Source of the DNA: a virus
Lineage: Duplodnaviria; Heunggongvirae; Uroviricota; Caudoviricetes
Virus record (IMG/VR): IMGVR_UViG_2690316325_000016
Length of the DNA: 21,799 nucleotides
Direction: 5' to 3' (one strand)
Under the pieces are notes generated by a model. That model did no database searches. It was not told the DNA's origin and was given only the letters and a program-made list of their open reading frames with translations. Of this stretch, positions 6,398 to 17,050 are shown piece after piece (position 1 is the first letter of the stretch; every line of letters starts with the position of its first letter). A program made the translations under genes and the position numbers.

Positions 6398-6656
6398 GGT
6401 TCTTTCCACCATCTGAAAAATAATTCTTTAAAATACCTGACATGTAATACAGAAAAAACACAAAACCATACCTTAAATAAAAACCTGATTATCAAGCAGA
6501 TATGCATGGATAAACTACAAGACGAGATATAAACCACCCTGTATTTAAATAAACAATAAACAACATCAGAAAAATAATTCTGCTCTATGGTTTAATTCAA
6601 AAATATCATTTATACTTTTCAGAACATCACCAGCAAGGCATAAACAAGGAAAGTAA

Positions 6657-7009: not shown

Positions 7010-7048
7010 GACAAAATCAATATAAACAGCCCCTCCGGAGAGGGGCTG
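7010..7048 (-). terminator. Intrinsic terminator-like hairpin plus U-tract for minus-strand transcription
   Basis: 9 bp GC-rich stem cagcccctc/gaggggctg with cgga loop, followed on minus strand by TTTATATTGATTTTG. Confidence 0.5.
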
Positions 7049-7272
7049 GAGAGTGGCGCTATGTGCCATTGCATGGTGCCGGGTGCCTCCCGGTGAATTC
7101 AGTACCAGCACCTGAATCCGCGATTATCCCATATACCTACTCGCTGATTGCCCCTCCGCACAGGGGGATTCACCATGCCAGTTTCTTTTAACAAACTCCC
7201 CGCAAACCAGACAACAGTCAACCGCCTGAATTGTGAAGTATTTAAAAATTTCTCCCGCTAACTGATACCCGG

Positions 7273-7766: not shown

Positions 7767-7906
7767 TAGACCGTATAACAAACACTCAATCAATACTTAA
7801 CAGAACTTTTATTTTTGACAAACATAAAATATTTTCAACAATATCCTGAGCCAGGTATATTTCAGTATAAGGCTCTGCCGGAAGGAATCTGGAAGAATGA
7901 ATATAG

Positions 7907-7980
7907 CGCGCTGTACTGGATTCGAACCAGTGACCGATTGCTTAGAAGGCAATTGCTCTGTCCGGCTGAGCTAACAACGC
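7907..7980 (-). tRNA. tRNA-Arg (anticodon UCU), CCA not encoded
   Basis: Cloverleaf parsed by hand: acceptor GCGTTGT/ACAGCGC, D-arm GCTC/GAGC, anticodon loop CTTCTAA, T-arm ACTGG-TTCGAAT-CCAGT. Confidence 0.9.
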
Positions 7981-8080: not shown

Positions 8081-8156
8081 TGGTGGCCCTTGCTGGATTT
8101 GAACCAGCGACCTGGCGATTATGAGTCGCTCGCTCTCACCACTGAGCTAAAGGGCC
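8081..8156 (-). tRNA. tRNA with CAU anticodon, ileX-like (tRNA-Ile2, lysidine) rather than Met; CCA encoded
   Basis: GGCCCTTTAGCTCAGTGGTGAGAGCGAGCGACTCATAATCGCCAGGTCGCTGGTTCAAATCCAGCAAGGGCCACCA; close to recalled E. coli ileX. Confidence 0.85.
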
Positions 8157-10999: not shown

Positions 11000-11155
11000 T
11001 TACTCCTCAGGTTCGTAAGCTGTGAAGACAGCGACCTCCGTCTGGCCGGTTCGGATTCGTACCTCGCAGAGGTCTTTCCTCGTTACCAGTGCCGTCACTA
11101 TGACGGTTAAACAGATGACGATCAGGGCGATTAACATCGCCTTTTGCTGCTTCAT
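11000..11155 (-). CDS. hokD: Hok-family type I toxin (HokD/RelF-like), 51 aa
   Basis: MKQQKAMLIALIVICLTVIVTALVTRKDLCEVRIRTGQTEVAVFTAYEPEE; AAGGAG SD; overlapping short mok-like ORF 11152-11211. Confidence 0.85.
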   Translation of the reverse strand: MKQQKAMLIALIVICLTVIVTALVTRKDLCEVRIRTGQTEVAVFTAYEPEE

Positions 11156-11413
11156 AGCCTGCTTCTCCTTGACCTTTCGGTCCGTAAGAGGCTAATCTCT
11201 ATGTGTCGCATAGATATGGCCTCAGATTAATGTTAAGCGTCTTGCAGGACGCGTAATGTTAACTGGGGCTTTTCTCTATCTGCCTTTTGGTGTTCATGCC
11301 TGAGACAGATAGCCTCAAGCACCCGCAGTCATTCTACTTAACTAAGATTTCCCCGCAAACCGTTTTTGTCCGGCACAGTAAATATCCAACTAAACCAATG
11401 GCGTTCGCTGTAT

Positions 11414-11763: not shown

Positions 11764-12080
11764 TCATTGCCTTATCTGGGAATCTGTAATCAGGTTTCCG
11801 GATGCTGGTGGATTCTCGCGTTTTAGTTGTTCATAAAAGTGCACAGCTTTAACCAGTTCTTCTGATGTAACCGGGACTGGCGGGGCAGTGAATAAGGCCT
11901 GAATTTCATAGTTCGGCCTGTCGTTACAATCCTCTTTTTTCGGTACATATTTCCAGTCACCAGACCACTACTTCCCCTGAAAGTCCGTAACGCCTTTTTT
12001 TTCACGTAGCGATATCGCCATGCCACTGTTTTTGCTTGCCCCGCCGTTTCATGCCCTTCCTGATAATTAACCTCGCTCAT
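11764..12080 (-). pseudogene. Probable disrupted gene: frameshift at an A8 homopolymer plus in-frame TAG
   Basis: Frame 0 is protein-like up to KKK (A8 tract at 11995-12002); a different frame carries the protein-like tail ...WSGDWKYVPKKEDCNDRPNYEIQALFTAPPVPVTSEELVKAVHFYEQLKRENPP... Confidence 0.35.
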
Positions 12081-12253
12081 TCATCGCCCCACTCATCACA
12101 ATATGCTTCGACCGGAGTTTTTCCTGCTTCATAATCATCACGCCATGCTTCAGCATCAGCAGCACTGCCACCACGTAACTCTGCATAGTCCATTAACAGT
12201 TCATGCCATTCTTCAAAACTGACGTTGTATTTAGTTGAACCAAAATCAGCCAT
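12077..12253 (-). CDS. Small highly acidic protein (58 aa)
   Basis: Codon-by-codon verified: MADFGSTKYNVSFEEWHELLMDYAELRGGSAADAEAWRDDYEAGKTPVEAYCDEWGDE; GAGGAAG SD; ATGA overlap with downstream gene. Confidence 0.55.
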   Translation of the reverse strand: MADFGSTKYNVSFEEWHELLMDYAELRGGSAADAEAWRDDYEAGKTPVEAYCDEWGDE

Positions 12254-12428
12254 TTTGTTCTTCCTCTTCGTCTTTTATTTCGTGATATGAGTAATTGCAG
12301 TAGTTAAAGAAAATATCTTTTGCTTCGTCATGTATTTCATCAGGCGTCGCATCATCATCCACTTCGAATTCATCCTCGAAATCTCCACCGGCTATTCCCG
12401 TTTCAATAATTATTTTAAACTTTCGCAT
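12246..12428 (-). CDS. Small highly acidic protein (60 aa)
   Basis: MRKFKIIIETGIAGGDFEDEFEVDDDATPDEIHDEAKDIFFNYCNYSYHEIKDEEEEQNG; overlaps next gene by 8 nt; SD separated from ATG by a GNRA hairpin. Confidence 0.5.
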   Translation of the reverse strand: MRKFKIIIETGIAGGDFEDEFEVDDDATPDEIHDEAKDIFFNYCNYSYHEIKDEEEEQNG

Positions 12429-12521
12429 TTAACTACCGCCCTTTCGGGCGGCCTCCTGATGTTCTGAGGGTGCAGAAATCCCTCCGGTTAAGGATTAAAT
12501 TTTTAACAGAGCTAAATTTAA

Positions 12522-12878
12522 TTATTCAGTTCTGGATTTTGTCGCCCTGCGTATCCGCGCTTTCGCGTTACGCTCAATCTGAATTAGCTTTTCTATATTT
12601 TTTCGCCTTTCCCGCTCCTCCTGACGCAAGAGCCTTACATCATCTGCCAGTCTGGTTTCTCTTTTCGCCACAGAGAGCATCCAGTCAAATGGCTCCACAA
12701 CTGCACCGCAGATTTTACAGCGGACCTGACGCTCTTTTTCGTCAACCCGGACAGAGGCGTGATGACAATATGGTCTTTCCGATGGCTCATAAAGAAAATT
12801 AACCTGATTACGAGGGTCATCCTCTTTTACCGGAAATAAAACGATATTGCTTAACTCATCCTCTGGTTTTATTTCCAT
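12522..12878 (-). CDS. Hypothetical protein with CHH...CxxC motif and basic C-terminal tail (alternative GTG start 12935)
   Basis: AAGGAGAGGAG SD immediately before ATG 12878; 118 aa. Confidence 0.6.
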   Translation of the reverse strand: MEIKPEDELSNIVLFPVKEDDPRNQVNFLYEPSERPYCHHASVRVDEKERQVRCKICGAVVEPFDWMLSVAKRETRLADDVRLLRQEERERRKNIEKLIQIERNAKARIRRATKSRTE

Positions 12879-12935
12879 GCTCCTCTCCTTTGATGCGAAT
12901 GCCAGCGGTAATTGAAGCCTGATAGCTAATTTCAC

Positions 12936-13358
12936 TCACAGTACCGCCTCCTGAAAATTACCCTGATAGAAAGCCAGTACACGCTGCATAGCTTCACTCT
13001 TCCGGCACTCGCGACAGATTATGTTTAGGCGACTGTCGTAGCGACGTATTTCTCCGTCAGGTAACGACCAGATAAGGTCCGGATCAACCACAACCGGTTT
13101 CTTCAGCTTTGCCCTCGATAATTTTTTGCGGGCATTTTGCCAGTCTTTACGAGCCTGTTCAGACGGGAATAACCCGTAGCCAGAATTGTATACATCGCCA
13201 CTGGCAACCAGCTCTCTGGCCAGAACGCTCATCAGATATCTTGTTGCCCCAGTTTTAGCTTCCAGTTGTCGTAACGTCTCGCGCCCACTCTGGCGTACGA
13301 GTTCAAGAACCTGTCCTTTAATTTTTTCCCGCTCTTCTTGTGTAAAAACTTTTGCCAC
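12936..13358 (-). CDS. Hypothetical protein (140 aa), possible winged-helix DNA-binding protein
   Basis: GTG start with AGGAGGG SD 4 nt upstream; stop overlaps start region of next gene. Confidence 0.6.
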   Translation of the reverse strand: MAKVFTQEEREKIKGQVLELVRQSGRETLRQLEAKTGATRYLMSVLARELVASGDVYNSGYGLFPSEQARKDWQNARKKLSRAKLKKPVVVDPDLIWSLPDGEIRRYDSRLNIICRECRKSEAMQRVLAFYQGNFQEAVL

Positions 13359-13398: not shown

Positions 13399-14373
13399 TT
13401 ACCCCCTGAAGCCCGGCGGAATTTCGTTATCCGGTTCAGAAATATGATTCACACAACGCTGGTTGTTCGTGCCGCTTACCGGGAGCAGCCAGGGGTTTTC
13501 AAAATTCCGGTCCGGTCCAAAAAACGTCGTCGCTCGCTGAACAAATTCCGTTCCCGTTTTCCCGGTAGCCGCAAGGTATCTTGCGTAACGCCTCACGCCA
13601 TCCAGCATGGCCTCTGGTGGCACCCCCTCGCGTAATCTGGCTTTCCAGGCACTGAAAGCGGATTTCTTCGGGTTTGCCCCGGCACGCAACGGGTATTCCC
13701 GCCAGACCTGTTCGAACACATCAGGATAATCCACTCGTCCCACAGGCTGCCCGGTGTTTTCCGGGACTACCCGATCGGCTTCCCGCTGAATGGCGGAATC
13801 GGCTTCCGGTGTCGTGCCTGCGGGCTGGCCAGGAGTGACGGTCTGAACATCCCCTGCCTGGTTCGTGGCGTTTTTTACGCCATGGACCATAGTGTTTTGA
13901 TCTTCTTGATCTGTATCTTTATCTGTATCTTTATCTGTCGTGACTCGTCGTGACATGTGCGTGACATTTCGTGACTCGCCGTGACAATCGCCATTTTGTT
14001 CCCGCTTTCTTTCCCTCTCTCGCTGCGCCCTCTTGCGCTCTGCCGGAGATTTTGCGGTTTGCGAAATATTGCCGTTGTCCTCTTTCAGCACCTGGCGTTT
14101 TTCCCATCCAGTGATTAAATCACCATCAAGTACCCGCCCCTGCATCGTCTGCAAAATTGAATCAATTACCTCTTCTGTCACGTCGAGCGCACTTGCCAAA
14201 TCTTCTGTCGTGACATCAATGTGACCTCGCGTGACATTTCGTGACGCGCTCACCAGGAGGTGGATATACACTGCCATCACTGTTGCAATTGGCTGCCCTG
14301 ACACCCTGGCAATTGTTCGCCACTTAGGGTCATTTGGCATGTCATGCCATAATCTGAGCCAGGCGTTAGCCAT
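13399..14373 (-). CDS. Putative phage replication initiator (O-like), containing internal iteron arrays
   Basis: 324 aa from ATG 14373 (GAGGTGA SD); position after cro/cII; acidic DKDTDKDTD linker; phased CGTGAC repeats inside gene. Confidence 0.55.
   Translation of the reverse strand: MANAWLRLWHDMPNDPKWRTIARVSGQPIATVMAVYIHLLVSASRNVTRGHIDVTTEDLASALDVTEEVIDSILQTMQGRVLDGDLITGWEKRQVLKEDNGNISQTAKSPAERKRAQRERERKREQNGDCHGESRNVTHMSRRVTTDKDTDKDTDQEDQNTMVHGVKNATNQAGDVQTVTPGQPAGTTPEADSAIQREADRVVPENTGQPVGRVDYPDVFEQVWREYPLRAGANPKKSAFSAWKARLREGVPPEAMLDGVRRYARYLAATGKTGTEFVQRATTFFGPDRNFENPWLLPVSGTNNQRCVNHISEPDNEIPPGFRG
13939..13985. repeat. Iteron-like array: five CGTGAC repeats at about 10 bp phase
   Basis: Copies start at 13939, 13949, 13960, 13970, 13980; preceded by tandem tctttatctgtatc repeats. 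Confidence 0.6.
14209..14245. repeat. Second iteron-like array: four (C/T)GTGAC repeats at about 10 bp phase
   Basis: Copies at 14209, 14220, 14230, 14240; inverted copy GTCACG near 14176. Confidence 0.55.
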
Positions 14374-14444
14374 ACTCACCTCTTCTGATACCGAATCTTT
14401 TTACTCACGAGTTGCCGGAAGCGATTCGATATGGCTATTGTCAG

Positions 14445-14870
14445 TCAATGTACTGCCACAGCATTTCCTGCCGGGCCACCACGGTTCATCTGATTGAAAC
14501 CGGCGATTGCCACTGCGACAAAATCATCAGCGTCTCTCACCAGTCGCTCCCGCGTCTCCACCAGCTCCCGAAAATAAGCTGAACTGTGGCTGCGCATTCT
14601 GGCCACCAGCAAAGGTGGCATTGCCTTTTCGATCGCTGGTAACAACGCCTGAATTTTTTCAACTGCATCAGGGGTGTCTTTCTCTACCCAGCGGAAAATT
14701 TTCTGGGTATTGCGAGCCAGGGCTTCCGGATGGCTGTCGTCATACAGTTCCGGGAACGTCATTCCCAGCTCGAAATACGCTTTGGTAATTTTCGCAGCCG
14801 GTACTTTTTCGCCGTCCGGATGCGCCCAGGCATTCATCGCCATGCGGATGTGTTCATGCTTGATTTTCAT
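14445..14870 (-). CDS. CII-like regulator (YdaT family)
   Basis: N-terminus MKIKHEHI... resembles recalled Rac YdaT; AAGGGGGG SD; directly downstream of cro-like gene. Confidence 0.65.
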   Translation of the reverse strand: MKIKHEHIRMAMNAWAHPDGEKVPAAKITKAYFELGMTFPELYDDSHPEALARNTQKIFRWVEKDTPDAVEKIQALLPAIEKAMPPLLVARMRSHSSAYFRELVETRERLVRDADDFVAVAIAGFNQMNRGGPAGNAVAVH

Positions 14871-15096
14871 GAATCCCCCCTTGGTTAGAAGGCGGATTAT
14901 GATCAGAACCGGGAATGACAACCGTCGGTATGTGTAACTCATATTTGAGCGCCCCGGCAGTGACTGCCTGAATTAGCAACGCCCATTTCCACGGAACCTC
15001 TTCCCCCCACATGCTGACTGTGGTTTTTGACGTTCCTAGAGCTGCGGCTGTTTTAACAACTCCGCCAAAATAGCCTAATACTTCTGATTTTTTCAT
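14854..15096 (-). CDS. Cro-like HTH repressor (YdaS/DicC position)
   Basis: 81 aa, GGAG SD, divergent from cI; HTH segment GGVVKTAAALGTSKTTVSMW. Confidence 0.7.
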   Translation of the reverse strand: MKKSEVLGYFGGVVKTAAALGTSKTTVSMWGEEVPWKWALLIQAVTAGALKYELHIPTVVIPGSDHNPPSNQGGIHENQA

Positions 15097-15187: not shown

Positions 15188-15826
15188 ATGAGCAAGCAAA
15201 CTATATCTGAACGCATAACCCAACGTATGCATGCGCTAAACCTGAAAGGCAAAGACCTTGTCAATGGCACTGGCGCATCAAAAGGCTCCGTAAGTCAATG
15301 GATGAACGGTGGAGGAGCGCCGTCCTCGCGTTACATAAGTTCACTGGCAAAAATATTGAAAGTAAACGAAAATTGGCTTCTTAATGGAGGAGAGTTAAAT
15401 ACAGGTGATTCGCTTGATCTATCTTTACCGCCGATAAAAACGGTTCCGCTACTATCACTTCAGCAGGCAGCAAGCTGGAGTGATTATATGAAAAATTCCT
15501 CAATAACCTCTTGTGTGCAGCTTGTCGGAGAAATCCCGGTCAATACCTTTGCAGTTGTTCTAGAGAGTGACAGTATGTCAACATCTGGTGGGGGAGTTTC
15601 CATCCCAAATGGTTCAACAGTTTTTGTTGATCCCGATCGAACCGTACAACCAGGAAATATTGTCCTTGCCTTACCCAAAGGGACCACAACACCTGTCATT
15701 CGTAAACTGGAGATAGAAGGGCCGGATATTCTTTTAGTCCCCACGAATCCTCGCTACCCTTCAATTATGCTGGATGATCTATCTTGCATATTGGGCGTAT
15801 GCTTTAAAATTCAACAAGATATTTAA
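15188..15826 (+). CDS. CI-type prophage repressor (N-terminal HTH_XRE + C-terminal S24 LexA-like peptidase domain)
   Basis: 212 aa; HTH at N-terminus, catalytic Ser-Lys region in C-terminal half; divergent from cro. Confidence 0.85.
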   Translation: MSKQTISERITQRMHALNLKGKDLVNGTGASKGSVSQWMNGGGAPSSRYISSLAKILKVNENWLLNGGELNTGDSLDLSLPPIKTVPLLSLQQAASWSDYMKNSSITSCVQLVGEIPVNTFAVVLESDSMSTSGGGVSIPNGSTVFVDPDRTVQPGNIVLALPKGTTTPVIRKLEIEGPDILLVPTNPRYPSIMLDDLSCILGVCFKIQQDI

Positions 15827-16992: not shown

Positions 16993-17050
16993 TTTCTGGT
17001 GACGTTTGGCGGTATCAGTTTTACTCCGTGACTGCTCTGCCGCCCTTTTT
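16993..17050 (+). ncRNA. dicF: DicF small regulatory RNA (ftsZ-targeting), processed from dicB operon transcript
   Basis: Sequence TTTCTGGTGACGTTTGGCGGTATCAGTTTTACTCCGTGACTGCTCTGCCGCCCTTTTT matches recalled DicF; terminal hairpin plus U-tract; correct spacing between ydfC and dicB. Confidence 0.8.

Follow-up and report, generated by a model that had tools for sequence, protein, structure and literature searches.

Replication origins that lie inside the gene of their own initiator are a kind already known. In phages with replisome organisers of the SPP1 G38P or Tuc2009 Rep type, origin repeats sit within the organiser gene, and in phage λ the iterons are bound by dimers of the O protein. The origin of λ, ori-λ, lies within gene O, mid-gene in linker-coding DNA, where iterons that are 19-bp imperfect inverted repeats abut an A+T-rich tract (PMC7466680), and the Rep boxes of plasmid pSK41 lie in rep, with an ori that encodes a linker (PMC5703833). 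Here we describe a candidate origin of this kind in a stretch of 21,799 nucleotides (“the window”; IMG/VR record IMGVR_UViG_2690316325_000016), which from its gene content is a lambdoid prophage of E. coli of the Qin/DicB type. Its replication initiator gene (rep; 13399-14373, minus strand; 324 amino acids, ATG at 14373, stop codon at 13399-13401, inside an open reading frame at 13399-14379) contains two arrays of a hexamer, GTCACG on the coding strand. We consider it probable that this gene holds its own replication origin, in which phased 10-11-bp direct iterons are bound by the gene product next to an unwinding element, with an auxiliary array upstream. As in ori-λ of λ and Stx phages, the candidate lies mid-gene in linker-coding DNA, with iterons beside an A+T-rich tract. 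Unlike in ori-λ, the repeats are direct and have a non-palindromic 6-bp core, 19-bp inverted-repeat iterons were not found, and a second array lies in the region coding for the DNA-binding domain. What is distinct here is the combination of one short non-palindromic direct iteron per turn, an array within the coding sequence of the DNA-binding domain, concerted switching of the iteron word, and DnaT-like C-terminal modules.

The linker array (13939-13985, minus strand) consists of five direct GTCACG iterons, read as CGTGAC on the plus strand. The exact copies start at 13939, 13949, 13960, 13970 and 13980 (spacing 10, 11, 10 and 10 bp) and code for C-H, S-R, V-T, S-R and V-T within residues 130-145. 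The N-terminal-domain array (14209-14245, minus strand; spacing 11, 10 and 10 bp) has four iterons and codes for S44-T55 (SRNVTRGHIDVT). Here the exact word stands at 14209, 14230 and 14240, while at 14220-14225 there is a one-mismatch variant, TGTGAC (GTCACA on the coding strand), at a place where most orthologues have the exact word. An earlier sequence-only reading of the window had reported CGTGAC arrays of five and four copies at a period of about 10 bp. The five stand as described, and the four are three exact copies and one variant. The same reading had placed the arrays inside a putative replication-initiator gene, next to tandem tctttatctgtatc repeats. The gene is borne out by the minus-strand open reading frame at 13399-14379 and by its assignment in PHROGs to the replication initiation proteins (phrog_3729, E=7e-227), and the tandem repeats by Tandem Repeats Finder, which reports a 12-bp × 2.9 repeat (TCTTTATCTGTA) at 13904-13938, abutting the linker array.

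The clustering of the word is far from what chance would give. Eight same-strand copies fall within 307 bp (Poisson P ~3e-16), the biggest cluster in 1000 first-order Markov simulations had 4 copies, and the remaining 20.8 kb of the window hold just 6 copies, both strands counted. One of the few copies beyond the rep gene, at 17027-17032, falls within the gene for the DicF small RNA. Tandem Repeats Finder also identified a period-10 array at 13937-13986. A lone inverted copy of the word lies between the arrays at 14177-14182 (GTCACG on the plus strand, CGTGAC on the coding strand) and codes for D64-V65-T66; its valine codon is GTG in 16/16 orthologues with valine at this place. No second repeat cluster of comparable strength was found in the 21.8-kb window. 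The sole other hexamer cluster of at least four copies is ATAAAC, present four times within ~50 bp at 6510-6556, in A+T-rich intergenic DNA.

The sequence-only reading had named an outcome that would speak against it, namely that the repeats arise from a repetitive protein-coding constraint. The arrays would then be a by-product of the amino-acid sequence, with no function at the level of DNA, and some repetition of this sort is present: both arrays encode the peptide word SRNVT, and DKDT repeats come afterwards. However, a period of 10-11 nucleotides is no multiple of three, so a peptide repeat cannot be its source, and the nine copies are read in all three frames, as GTC-ACG (Val-Thr), g-TCA-CGa (Ser-Arg) and tGT-CAC-g (Cys/Gly-His). 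The codons are fixed as well. In a codon alignment of 20 genes of the GTCACG clade, from hosts with 34-63% GC, invariant residues outside the word use between three and six codons (R7 six, L8 five, T20 four, V32 four, R87 five). Within the N-terminal-domain array, by contrast, V47 is GTC in 20/20, T48 ACG in 20/20, Gly GGT in 20/20, His CAC in 19/19, V54 GTC in 20/20 and S44 TCA in 19/20, and in the linker array Ser is TCA and Val is GTC in 19/19 each, with the codon CAC frozen there too. The major-codon fraction of this clade was 0.957 in the 12 word columns versus 0.534 in the 58 other conserved columns (Mann-Whitney P=2e-7). Fifteen genes of another clade, with the word GAACGC, gave 0.955 in the word versus 0.541 outside it (P=6e-6). 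Three reading frames, a 10-11-bp period and synonymous sites frozen in two clades together exclude a repetitive coding constraint, and we give the by-product explanation a negligible probability. We take it as established that the words are a selected nucleic-acid element. It follows from the frozen codons that the invariant peptide words SRNVTRGH.DVT and CH.ESRNVT largely reflect DNA-level selection.

Frozen synonymous sites, taken alone, fit selection on DNA and on RNA alike, and the constraint might instead act on the messenger RNA, through a motif for an RNA-binding regulator or a translation-pausing element. This we consider highly improbable. The strict 10-11-nucleotide period is the helical repeat of B-DNA, no RNA structure is obvious from the direct repeats, the array region has no match to an Rfam family, and the inverted copy is conserved too. 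In addition, the adjoining A+T-rich repeat and the context of initiator and helicase genes fit an origin.

That repeat, a purine-skewed and A+T-rich tandem array at 13890-13938 (minus strand; coding strand ACAGATAAAGATACAGATAAAGATACAGATCAAGAAGATCAAAAC, encoding DKDTDKDTDQEDQ), is likely the DNA-unwinding element, to judge from the comparable A+T-rich tract in ori-λ (PMC7466680). In the window, the element and the 60 nucleotides past the last iteron each have 35% GC versus 54% for the whole gene. Across the relatives described below, the 60 nucleotides past the linker array have 25-47% GC versus 42-67% for the genes, and purines make up 57-85% of their coding strand. The sequence ‘[AC][CT]AGATAAAGATAAAGA’ comes after the last linker iteron in nearly every clade. 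It is kept as DNA between clades and whatever the GC content of the host, and in the codon alignment D158 is GAT in 18/18 and K159 is AAA in 16/17, even with hosts of 60-63% GC. Two GATC (Dam) sites lie within the window's repeat, at 13899 and 13908, and could subject the origin to control by methylation or SeqA. Many enterobacterial relatives have AAAGATCTAAAAGAT at the place of these GATC sites. Readings of the GATAAA repeat as DnaA boxes or as a DnaA-trio were rejected on sequence and polarity.

The close pairing of iterons and A+T-rich DNA bears on a further explanation, in which the initiator or another regulator uses the sites for autoregulation or copy control, by roadblock, titration or handcuffing like that of incA of P1, and replication starts elsewhere. 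An arrangement in two separate arrays is reminiscent of control iterons, some relatives do without the N-terminal-domain array, and both arrays lie within the transcribed rep gene. We nonetheless think this unlikely, given that a conserved, A+T-rich and strand-skewed element, of the sort that typically accompanies origin iterons, directly adjoins the linker array in every case, and that no repeat cluster of comparable strength exists elsewhere in the window. Moreover, the characterised gene-internal analogues are origins (PMC7466680, PMC5703833). Three generic features of an iteron origin are present at this locus: at least three phased direct repeats (5 + 4), conservation at the DNA level and an adjacent A+T-rich element.

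We then compared 58 loci coding for relatives of the N-terminal domain, with one genome per species, from gamma-, beta- and alpha-proteobacteria, Acidobacteria and one metagenome-assembled genome (MAG) of the Gemmataceae (planctomycete). In ~45 of the 56 full genes, the top over-represented hexamer occurs at the same two places, ~128-160 and ~350-450 nucleotides from the ATG. The spacings across the family are 10 bp (168 cases), 11 bp (38) and 20-21 bp (17). The word itself changes. GTCACG is found in the window, in loci L004-L024 (except L006) and in L026 and L027; GTAACG in L006, L025, L034, L040 and L041; (C)GAACGC in ~18 loci, Acidobacteria and Gemmataceae among them; and GTGACG in L057. 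Both arrays of one gene always share one word, so the same peptide words appear twice, as with NATERGRTQ and PNATERxRTP, or TTGNAGVTQG, which occurs two times in L040. Thus the layout suggested for this prophage is kept across proteobacteria, Acidobacteria and a planctomycete, with a word that switches in concert in both arrays.

Within this layout there is considerable variation. Arrays hold from 2 to 7 copies, the loop carrying the N-terminal-domain array differs in length and copy number (L005, L027, L040), and a few low-GC members have just one or two recognisable copies. The word occurs 0-4 times in the 5.5-kb flanks of the loci, except in the outlier L057 (word GTGACG), which has 8 copies there. 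The start-to-start distance between the arrays is ~225-350 bp across relatives with no clear phase lock, and we claim no fixed helical phase between them. The linker array is present in nearly all family members, and in a few it alone is kept (L038, L052 and L043/L058). Since some relatives are without the N-terminal-domain array, this array is probably auxiliary. In L043 (a Serratia MAG) and L058 (Pantoea), (A)CTACG(TA) arrays lie at ~325-700 nucleotides of the gene, partly in both orientations and in two groups ~320 bp apart. In these two loci the central and C-terminal part of the protein is longer and different, with the amino-acid words SNPWAR... and KDLK.

When the alignment of relatives (L004-L059) was sorted by iteron word, a basic helix of the initiator was found to follow the word. 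In the window this helix (residues 107-127, AKSPAERKRAQRERERKRE; 13993-14055, minus strand) is modelled by AlphaFold2 as helical over residues 110-127 and is encoded just upstream of the linker array. The type AAERKRxQRERE goes with GTCACG, SAER[AGS]KxWRE with GAACGC and ERTRAYRE with GTGACG, and [EAD]RV[KR]x[YF]RE goes with GTAACG in three unrelated lineages. Furthermore, L038 has a winged-helix domain of the GAACGC lineage, yet its linker iterons are GTCACG, its basic helix is of the GTCACG type and it lacks an N-terminal-domain array, as in a recombinant. There is also an exception to the pairing: L026 (GTCACG) and L006/L025 (GTAACG) share nearly one helix. We hypothesise from these alignments that the basic helix is the determinant of iteron specificity. 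As the helix is encoded <60 bp from the array, plain linkage could explain the pairing as well. A scan of the viral_contigs collection returned near-identical E. coli copies only and hence carried no information on the link between helix and word.

This pairing also helps in judging whether the arrays are read by some other protein, such as a host factor, the DUF977 or cII-like product, or the small subunit of terminase at a pac site. Binding of these sites by Rep is predicted from sequence, and the pac site of P1 consists of phased hexamer clusters in two groups, a pattern that the present arrays also fit. Yet the arrays travel with the N-terminal domain across phyla despite many different downstream genes and contexts, and changes of the word go along with changes in the basic helix of this protein. 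In addition, the same gene and arrays occur in records named as siphovirus (vB_EcoS) and myovirus (vB_EcoM), although these are names only, and GTCACG is not a DnaA box. Another reader therefore seems very unlikely to us, and the initiator itself remains the protein that would most plausibly bind the iterons.

The architecture of this initiator, modelled with AlphaFold2 on an 83-sequence alignment, is compatible with such a role. The N-terminal winged-helix domain (residues 1-98; 14080-14373, minus strand), which is modelled confidently and which we propose to be the iteron-binding or oligomerising domain, has helices at 16-25, 29-45, 56-63 and 67-77 and a β-wing at 78-88. Its closest fold is the N-terminal domain of DnaD, a winged helix, and a RepA_N initiator is also among the matches. 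Residues 99-215 are disordered apart from the basic helix, and a helical C-terminal domain follows at 216-300 with a predicted local distance difference test (pLDDT) score >90. According to the model, the linker array codes for disordered residues (130-145) and the N-terminal-domain array for the end of helix 29-45 and the loop 46-55, so that both would sit where the protein tolerates an imposed sequence.

The protein as a whole has no Pfam match at E<=0.01 and no family over threshold. The name it bears at NCBI, ‘phage replisome organizer’, links it to the organisers of family PF09681 (SPP1 G38P, Tuc2009 Rep), as do the PHROGs name and the DnaD fold. The PF09681 model itself, however, reaches 12.9 bits against a gathering threshold of 23.3 (E=0.11; residues 5-78 to model positions 1-78), and the iteron sequence and architecture are unrelated to theirs. 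The window protein likewise has no Pfam match to RepA_N (PF06970), the family of pSK41 Rep and Firmicutes plasmids. It differs from these in its proteobacterial phage carriers, in the form of its iterons and its dual arrays, and in that the C-terminal modules of its family are DnaT-like, whereas the C-terminal domain of pSK41 Rep contacts the DnaG primase. Finally, its domains have no match to the λ O family in Pfam at E up to 10, which is another departure from λ.

The C-terminus of the protein points to the host instead. Its last 17 residues (308-324, VNHISEPDNEIPPGFRG; 13402-13452, minus strand) are near-identical to the C-terminus of host DnaT and contain the DnaT tail motif SEPDxxIPPGFRG; in a phmmer search of the PDB they match the DnaT chains 6aep, 2ru8 and 9zbt at E=3e-4 to 7e-3. 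The NCBIfam model of DnaT scores 19.3 bits against a threshold of 201 and aligns to the tail only (model positions 156-179). The window protein has no match to PF17948, the single-stranded DNA-binding domain of DnaT, and no DnaT domain in its C-terminal domain. Most family members do carry PF17948 (P0074 matches at 3e-18), and the family profile (A2) matches the C-terminal domain of DnaT at E=5.5e-4. That domain forms filaments on single-stranded DNA and marks the site of helicase loading (PMC13377028). Unlike the present family, DnaT has no sequence-specific domain for binding double-stranded DNA and works in the PriA/PriB restart pathway. We propose, from this sequence likeness, that the C-terminal tail is a link to the host DnaB/DnaC loading machinery; it is the sole lead on DnaB recruitment.

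The position of the gene is that expected for a lambdoid initiator. The window order is cI / cro / cII-like / rep, which puts the origin candidate inside the pR operon and rep in the ‘O’ position of the lambdoid early-right operon, 3' of cro-like and cII/YdaT-like genes, as O stands after cro and cII in λ. The cI-like repressor gene lies at 15188-15826 (plus strand) and the YdaT/cII-like gene at 14445-14942 (minus strand), and the window also carries a P22-Cro-like gene. The genes downstream of rep (12936-13358, minus strand, and 11823-12935) comprise DUF977 (‘Ren-like’ in PHROGs), a zinc-ribbon protein, DUF7167 and small open reading frames; hok/sok, DUF968, RusA and Q also lie beyond rep on this side, and the other side of the window holds DicF, an exonuclease and the integrase. 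The initiator gene is not followed by one for a helicase, helicase loader or primase, and none was found between the cII-like gene and Q in the window, which is a further difference from λ with its P gene. In relatives, the next gene encodes a λ-P-like protein (Phage_lambda_P) in L007, a DnaC/IstB-like protein in L025 and L040, DnaB helicase in L019 and L049, and a DUF6475 protein in L032, while the next gene in L011, L015, L021 and L037 has no Pfam match. To judge by these annotations, the order of initiator and loader in such relatives is that of λ O-P. The sequence-only reading had likened the locus to λ, with iterons inside the initiator gene and a short motif phased at about 10 bp in place of the λ type, and its sequence-level predictions all held: one array does lie in linker-coding DNA, an A+T-rich element adjoins it, and loader or helicase genes come next in relatives.

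From the repeats and their phasing, the nucleotide-level selection, the conserved layout and the concerted switches of its word, the protein fold and the genes around it, we infer binding by the initiator, unwinding at the A+T-rich repeat, origin activity and a route of helicase recruitment. In the scheme that we envisage, the initiator, composed of a DnaD-like winged-helix N-terminal domain followed by a basic helix, would bind as monomers side by side, one per helical turn, on the direct 10-11-bp iterons with their GTCACG core. The five linker-coding iterons directly abut the conserved (GATAAA/GATACA)n element, where the duplex would open. The four further iterons ~230 bp upstream may be auxiliary sites that serve cooperative loading, DNA looping or the control of copy number. 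Recruitment of the host helicase would then fall to the C-terminal part, in most relatives a DnaT-like single-stranded DNA-binding domain, with a P-like loader, DnaC-like loader or DnaB gene next to rep, and in the window, where no partner gene is present, possibly through the DnaT tail.

Several points weigh against an origin at this site. Selection on nucleotides proves a function of the DNA (or RNA), and does not tell by which protein the sites are read, nor that they are the place where replication begins. As the window lacks a loader gene, what would follow origin binding is conjectural. All 25 phage records that contain the N-terminal domain are uncharacterised and none is a studied model, and no description of the iterons, the origin or the family was found in the open-access literature.

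With these points taken into account, the initiator gene remains the probable seat of the origin, and comparison between phages suggests that the origin moves as a unit. Phages 813R8 and Tritos have the same rep gene and arrays as the window but different immunity genes, which argues that the words are not operators of the repressor or immunity system. Conversely, the last 137 codons of rep (13399-13809; 3001-3411 in L003) share 83% DNA identity with the ‘O’ genes of PhiR5_2, phiSTEC1589-Stx1c and the Shigella Stx phage 75/02, whose N-terminal halves are unrelated to that of the window and which are followed by a DnaC gene. For PhiR5_2, this unrelated half of the ‘O’ gene was searched for iterons, and no comparable array was found. 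Judged by these alignments, domains seem to have been shuffled at the linker, a short way downstream of the proposed origin. With a shared C-terminal part joined to unrelated N-terminal halves, the N-terminal domain and arrays behave as an exchangeable module, like lambdoid origin specificity: in λ, too, the N-terminal domain and ori are swapped as a unit and the C-terminal domain is common to other ‘O’ proteins. The window rep gene is also 96 bp shorter than in phages 813R8, Tritos and Evi (975 versus 1071 nucleotides). This indel lies downstream of the origin, in the region coding for the disordered linker (~13770-13850; ~3440-3540 in L001/L002), and close by the 10-bp sequence ATCGGCTTCC is directly repeated, at 13774 and 13798.

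The element is widespread in E. coli, where a 551-bp region of it was found in 2091/5426 complete genomes. Homologues retrieved with the C-terminal domain were nearly all E. coli fragments and contributed little. In the plasmid collection there was no case of the rep gene as a clear sole replicon, and two 51-kb Pseudomonas ‘plasmids’ look like phage genomes.

A broader picture is possible, and we advance it tentatively. A wide and uncharacterised family of initiators, ranging from E. coli to Acidobacteria, may write its binding sites into the codons of its own DNA-binding domain and linker, so that the sites dictate the seemingly invariant residues (SRNVTRGH.DVT and CH.ESRNVT). Switches of specificity (GTCACG, GTAACG, GAACGC, GTGACG) would rewrite both arrays and the peptide in concert, with the basic helix as specificity determinant, and in the E. 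coli version one protein would lead from origin recognition to helicase loading by mimicry of DnaT, with no phage loader. If the origin itself were confirmed, a compact type of origin with monomer-sized 10-11-bp direct iterons would be added to the λ and RepA_N paradigm, and the family would offer a clean natural example of a cis-element constraint fixing residues of the very protein that reads the element. The four or more words would provide orthogonal pairs of origin and initiator for studies of incompatibility or for vector design, and in thousands of prophages, Stx-related and DicB/Qin-type elements among them, the origin could be predicted. The DnaT-like C-terminal modules would, in addition, tie phage initiation to the host restart primosome. 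The element is common in E. coli and has relatives across proteobacteria and beyond, yet its origin is without description in the searchable literature.

Finally, we note some further features of the window. Rfam matches over the gathering score were obtained for the DicF small RNA (16994-17045, plus strand), the sok antitoxin RNA (11153-11324, minus strand) and the STnc100 small RNA (7018-7207, minus strand), and a hok-type open reading frame lies alongside the sok match at 11000-11155. The prophage also has two transfer RNA (tRNA) genes, at 7906-7980 and 8081-8156 (minus strand), one for Arg (tct) and one with a CAT anticodon. The latter is called Met by ARAGORN; at the corresponding place in a related prophage, PGAP annotates two tRNA-Arg and one tRNA-Ile.

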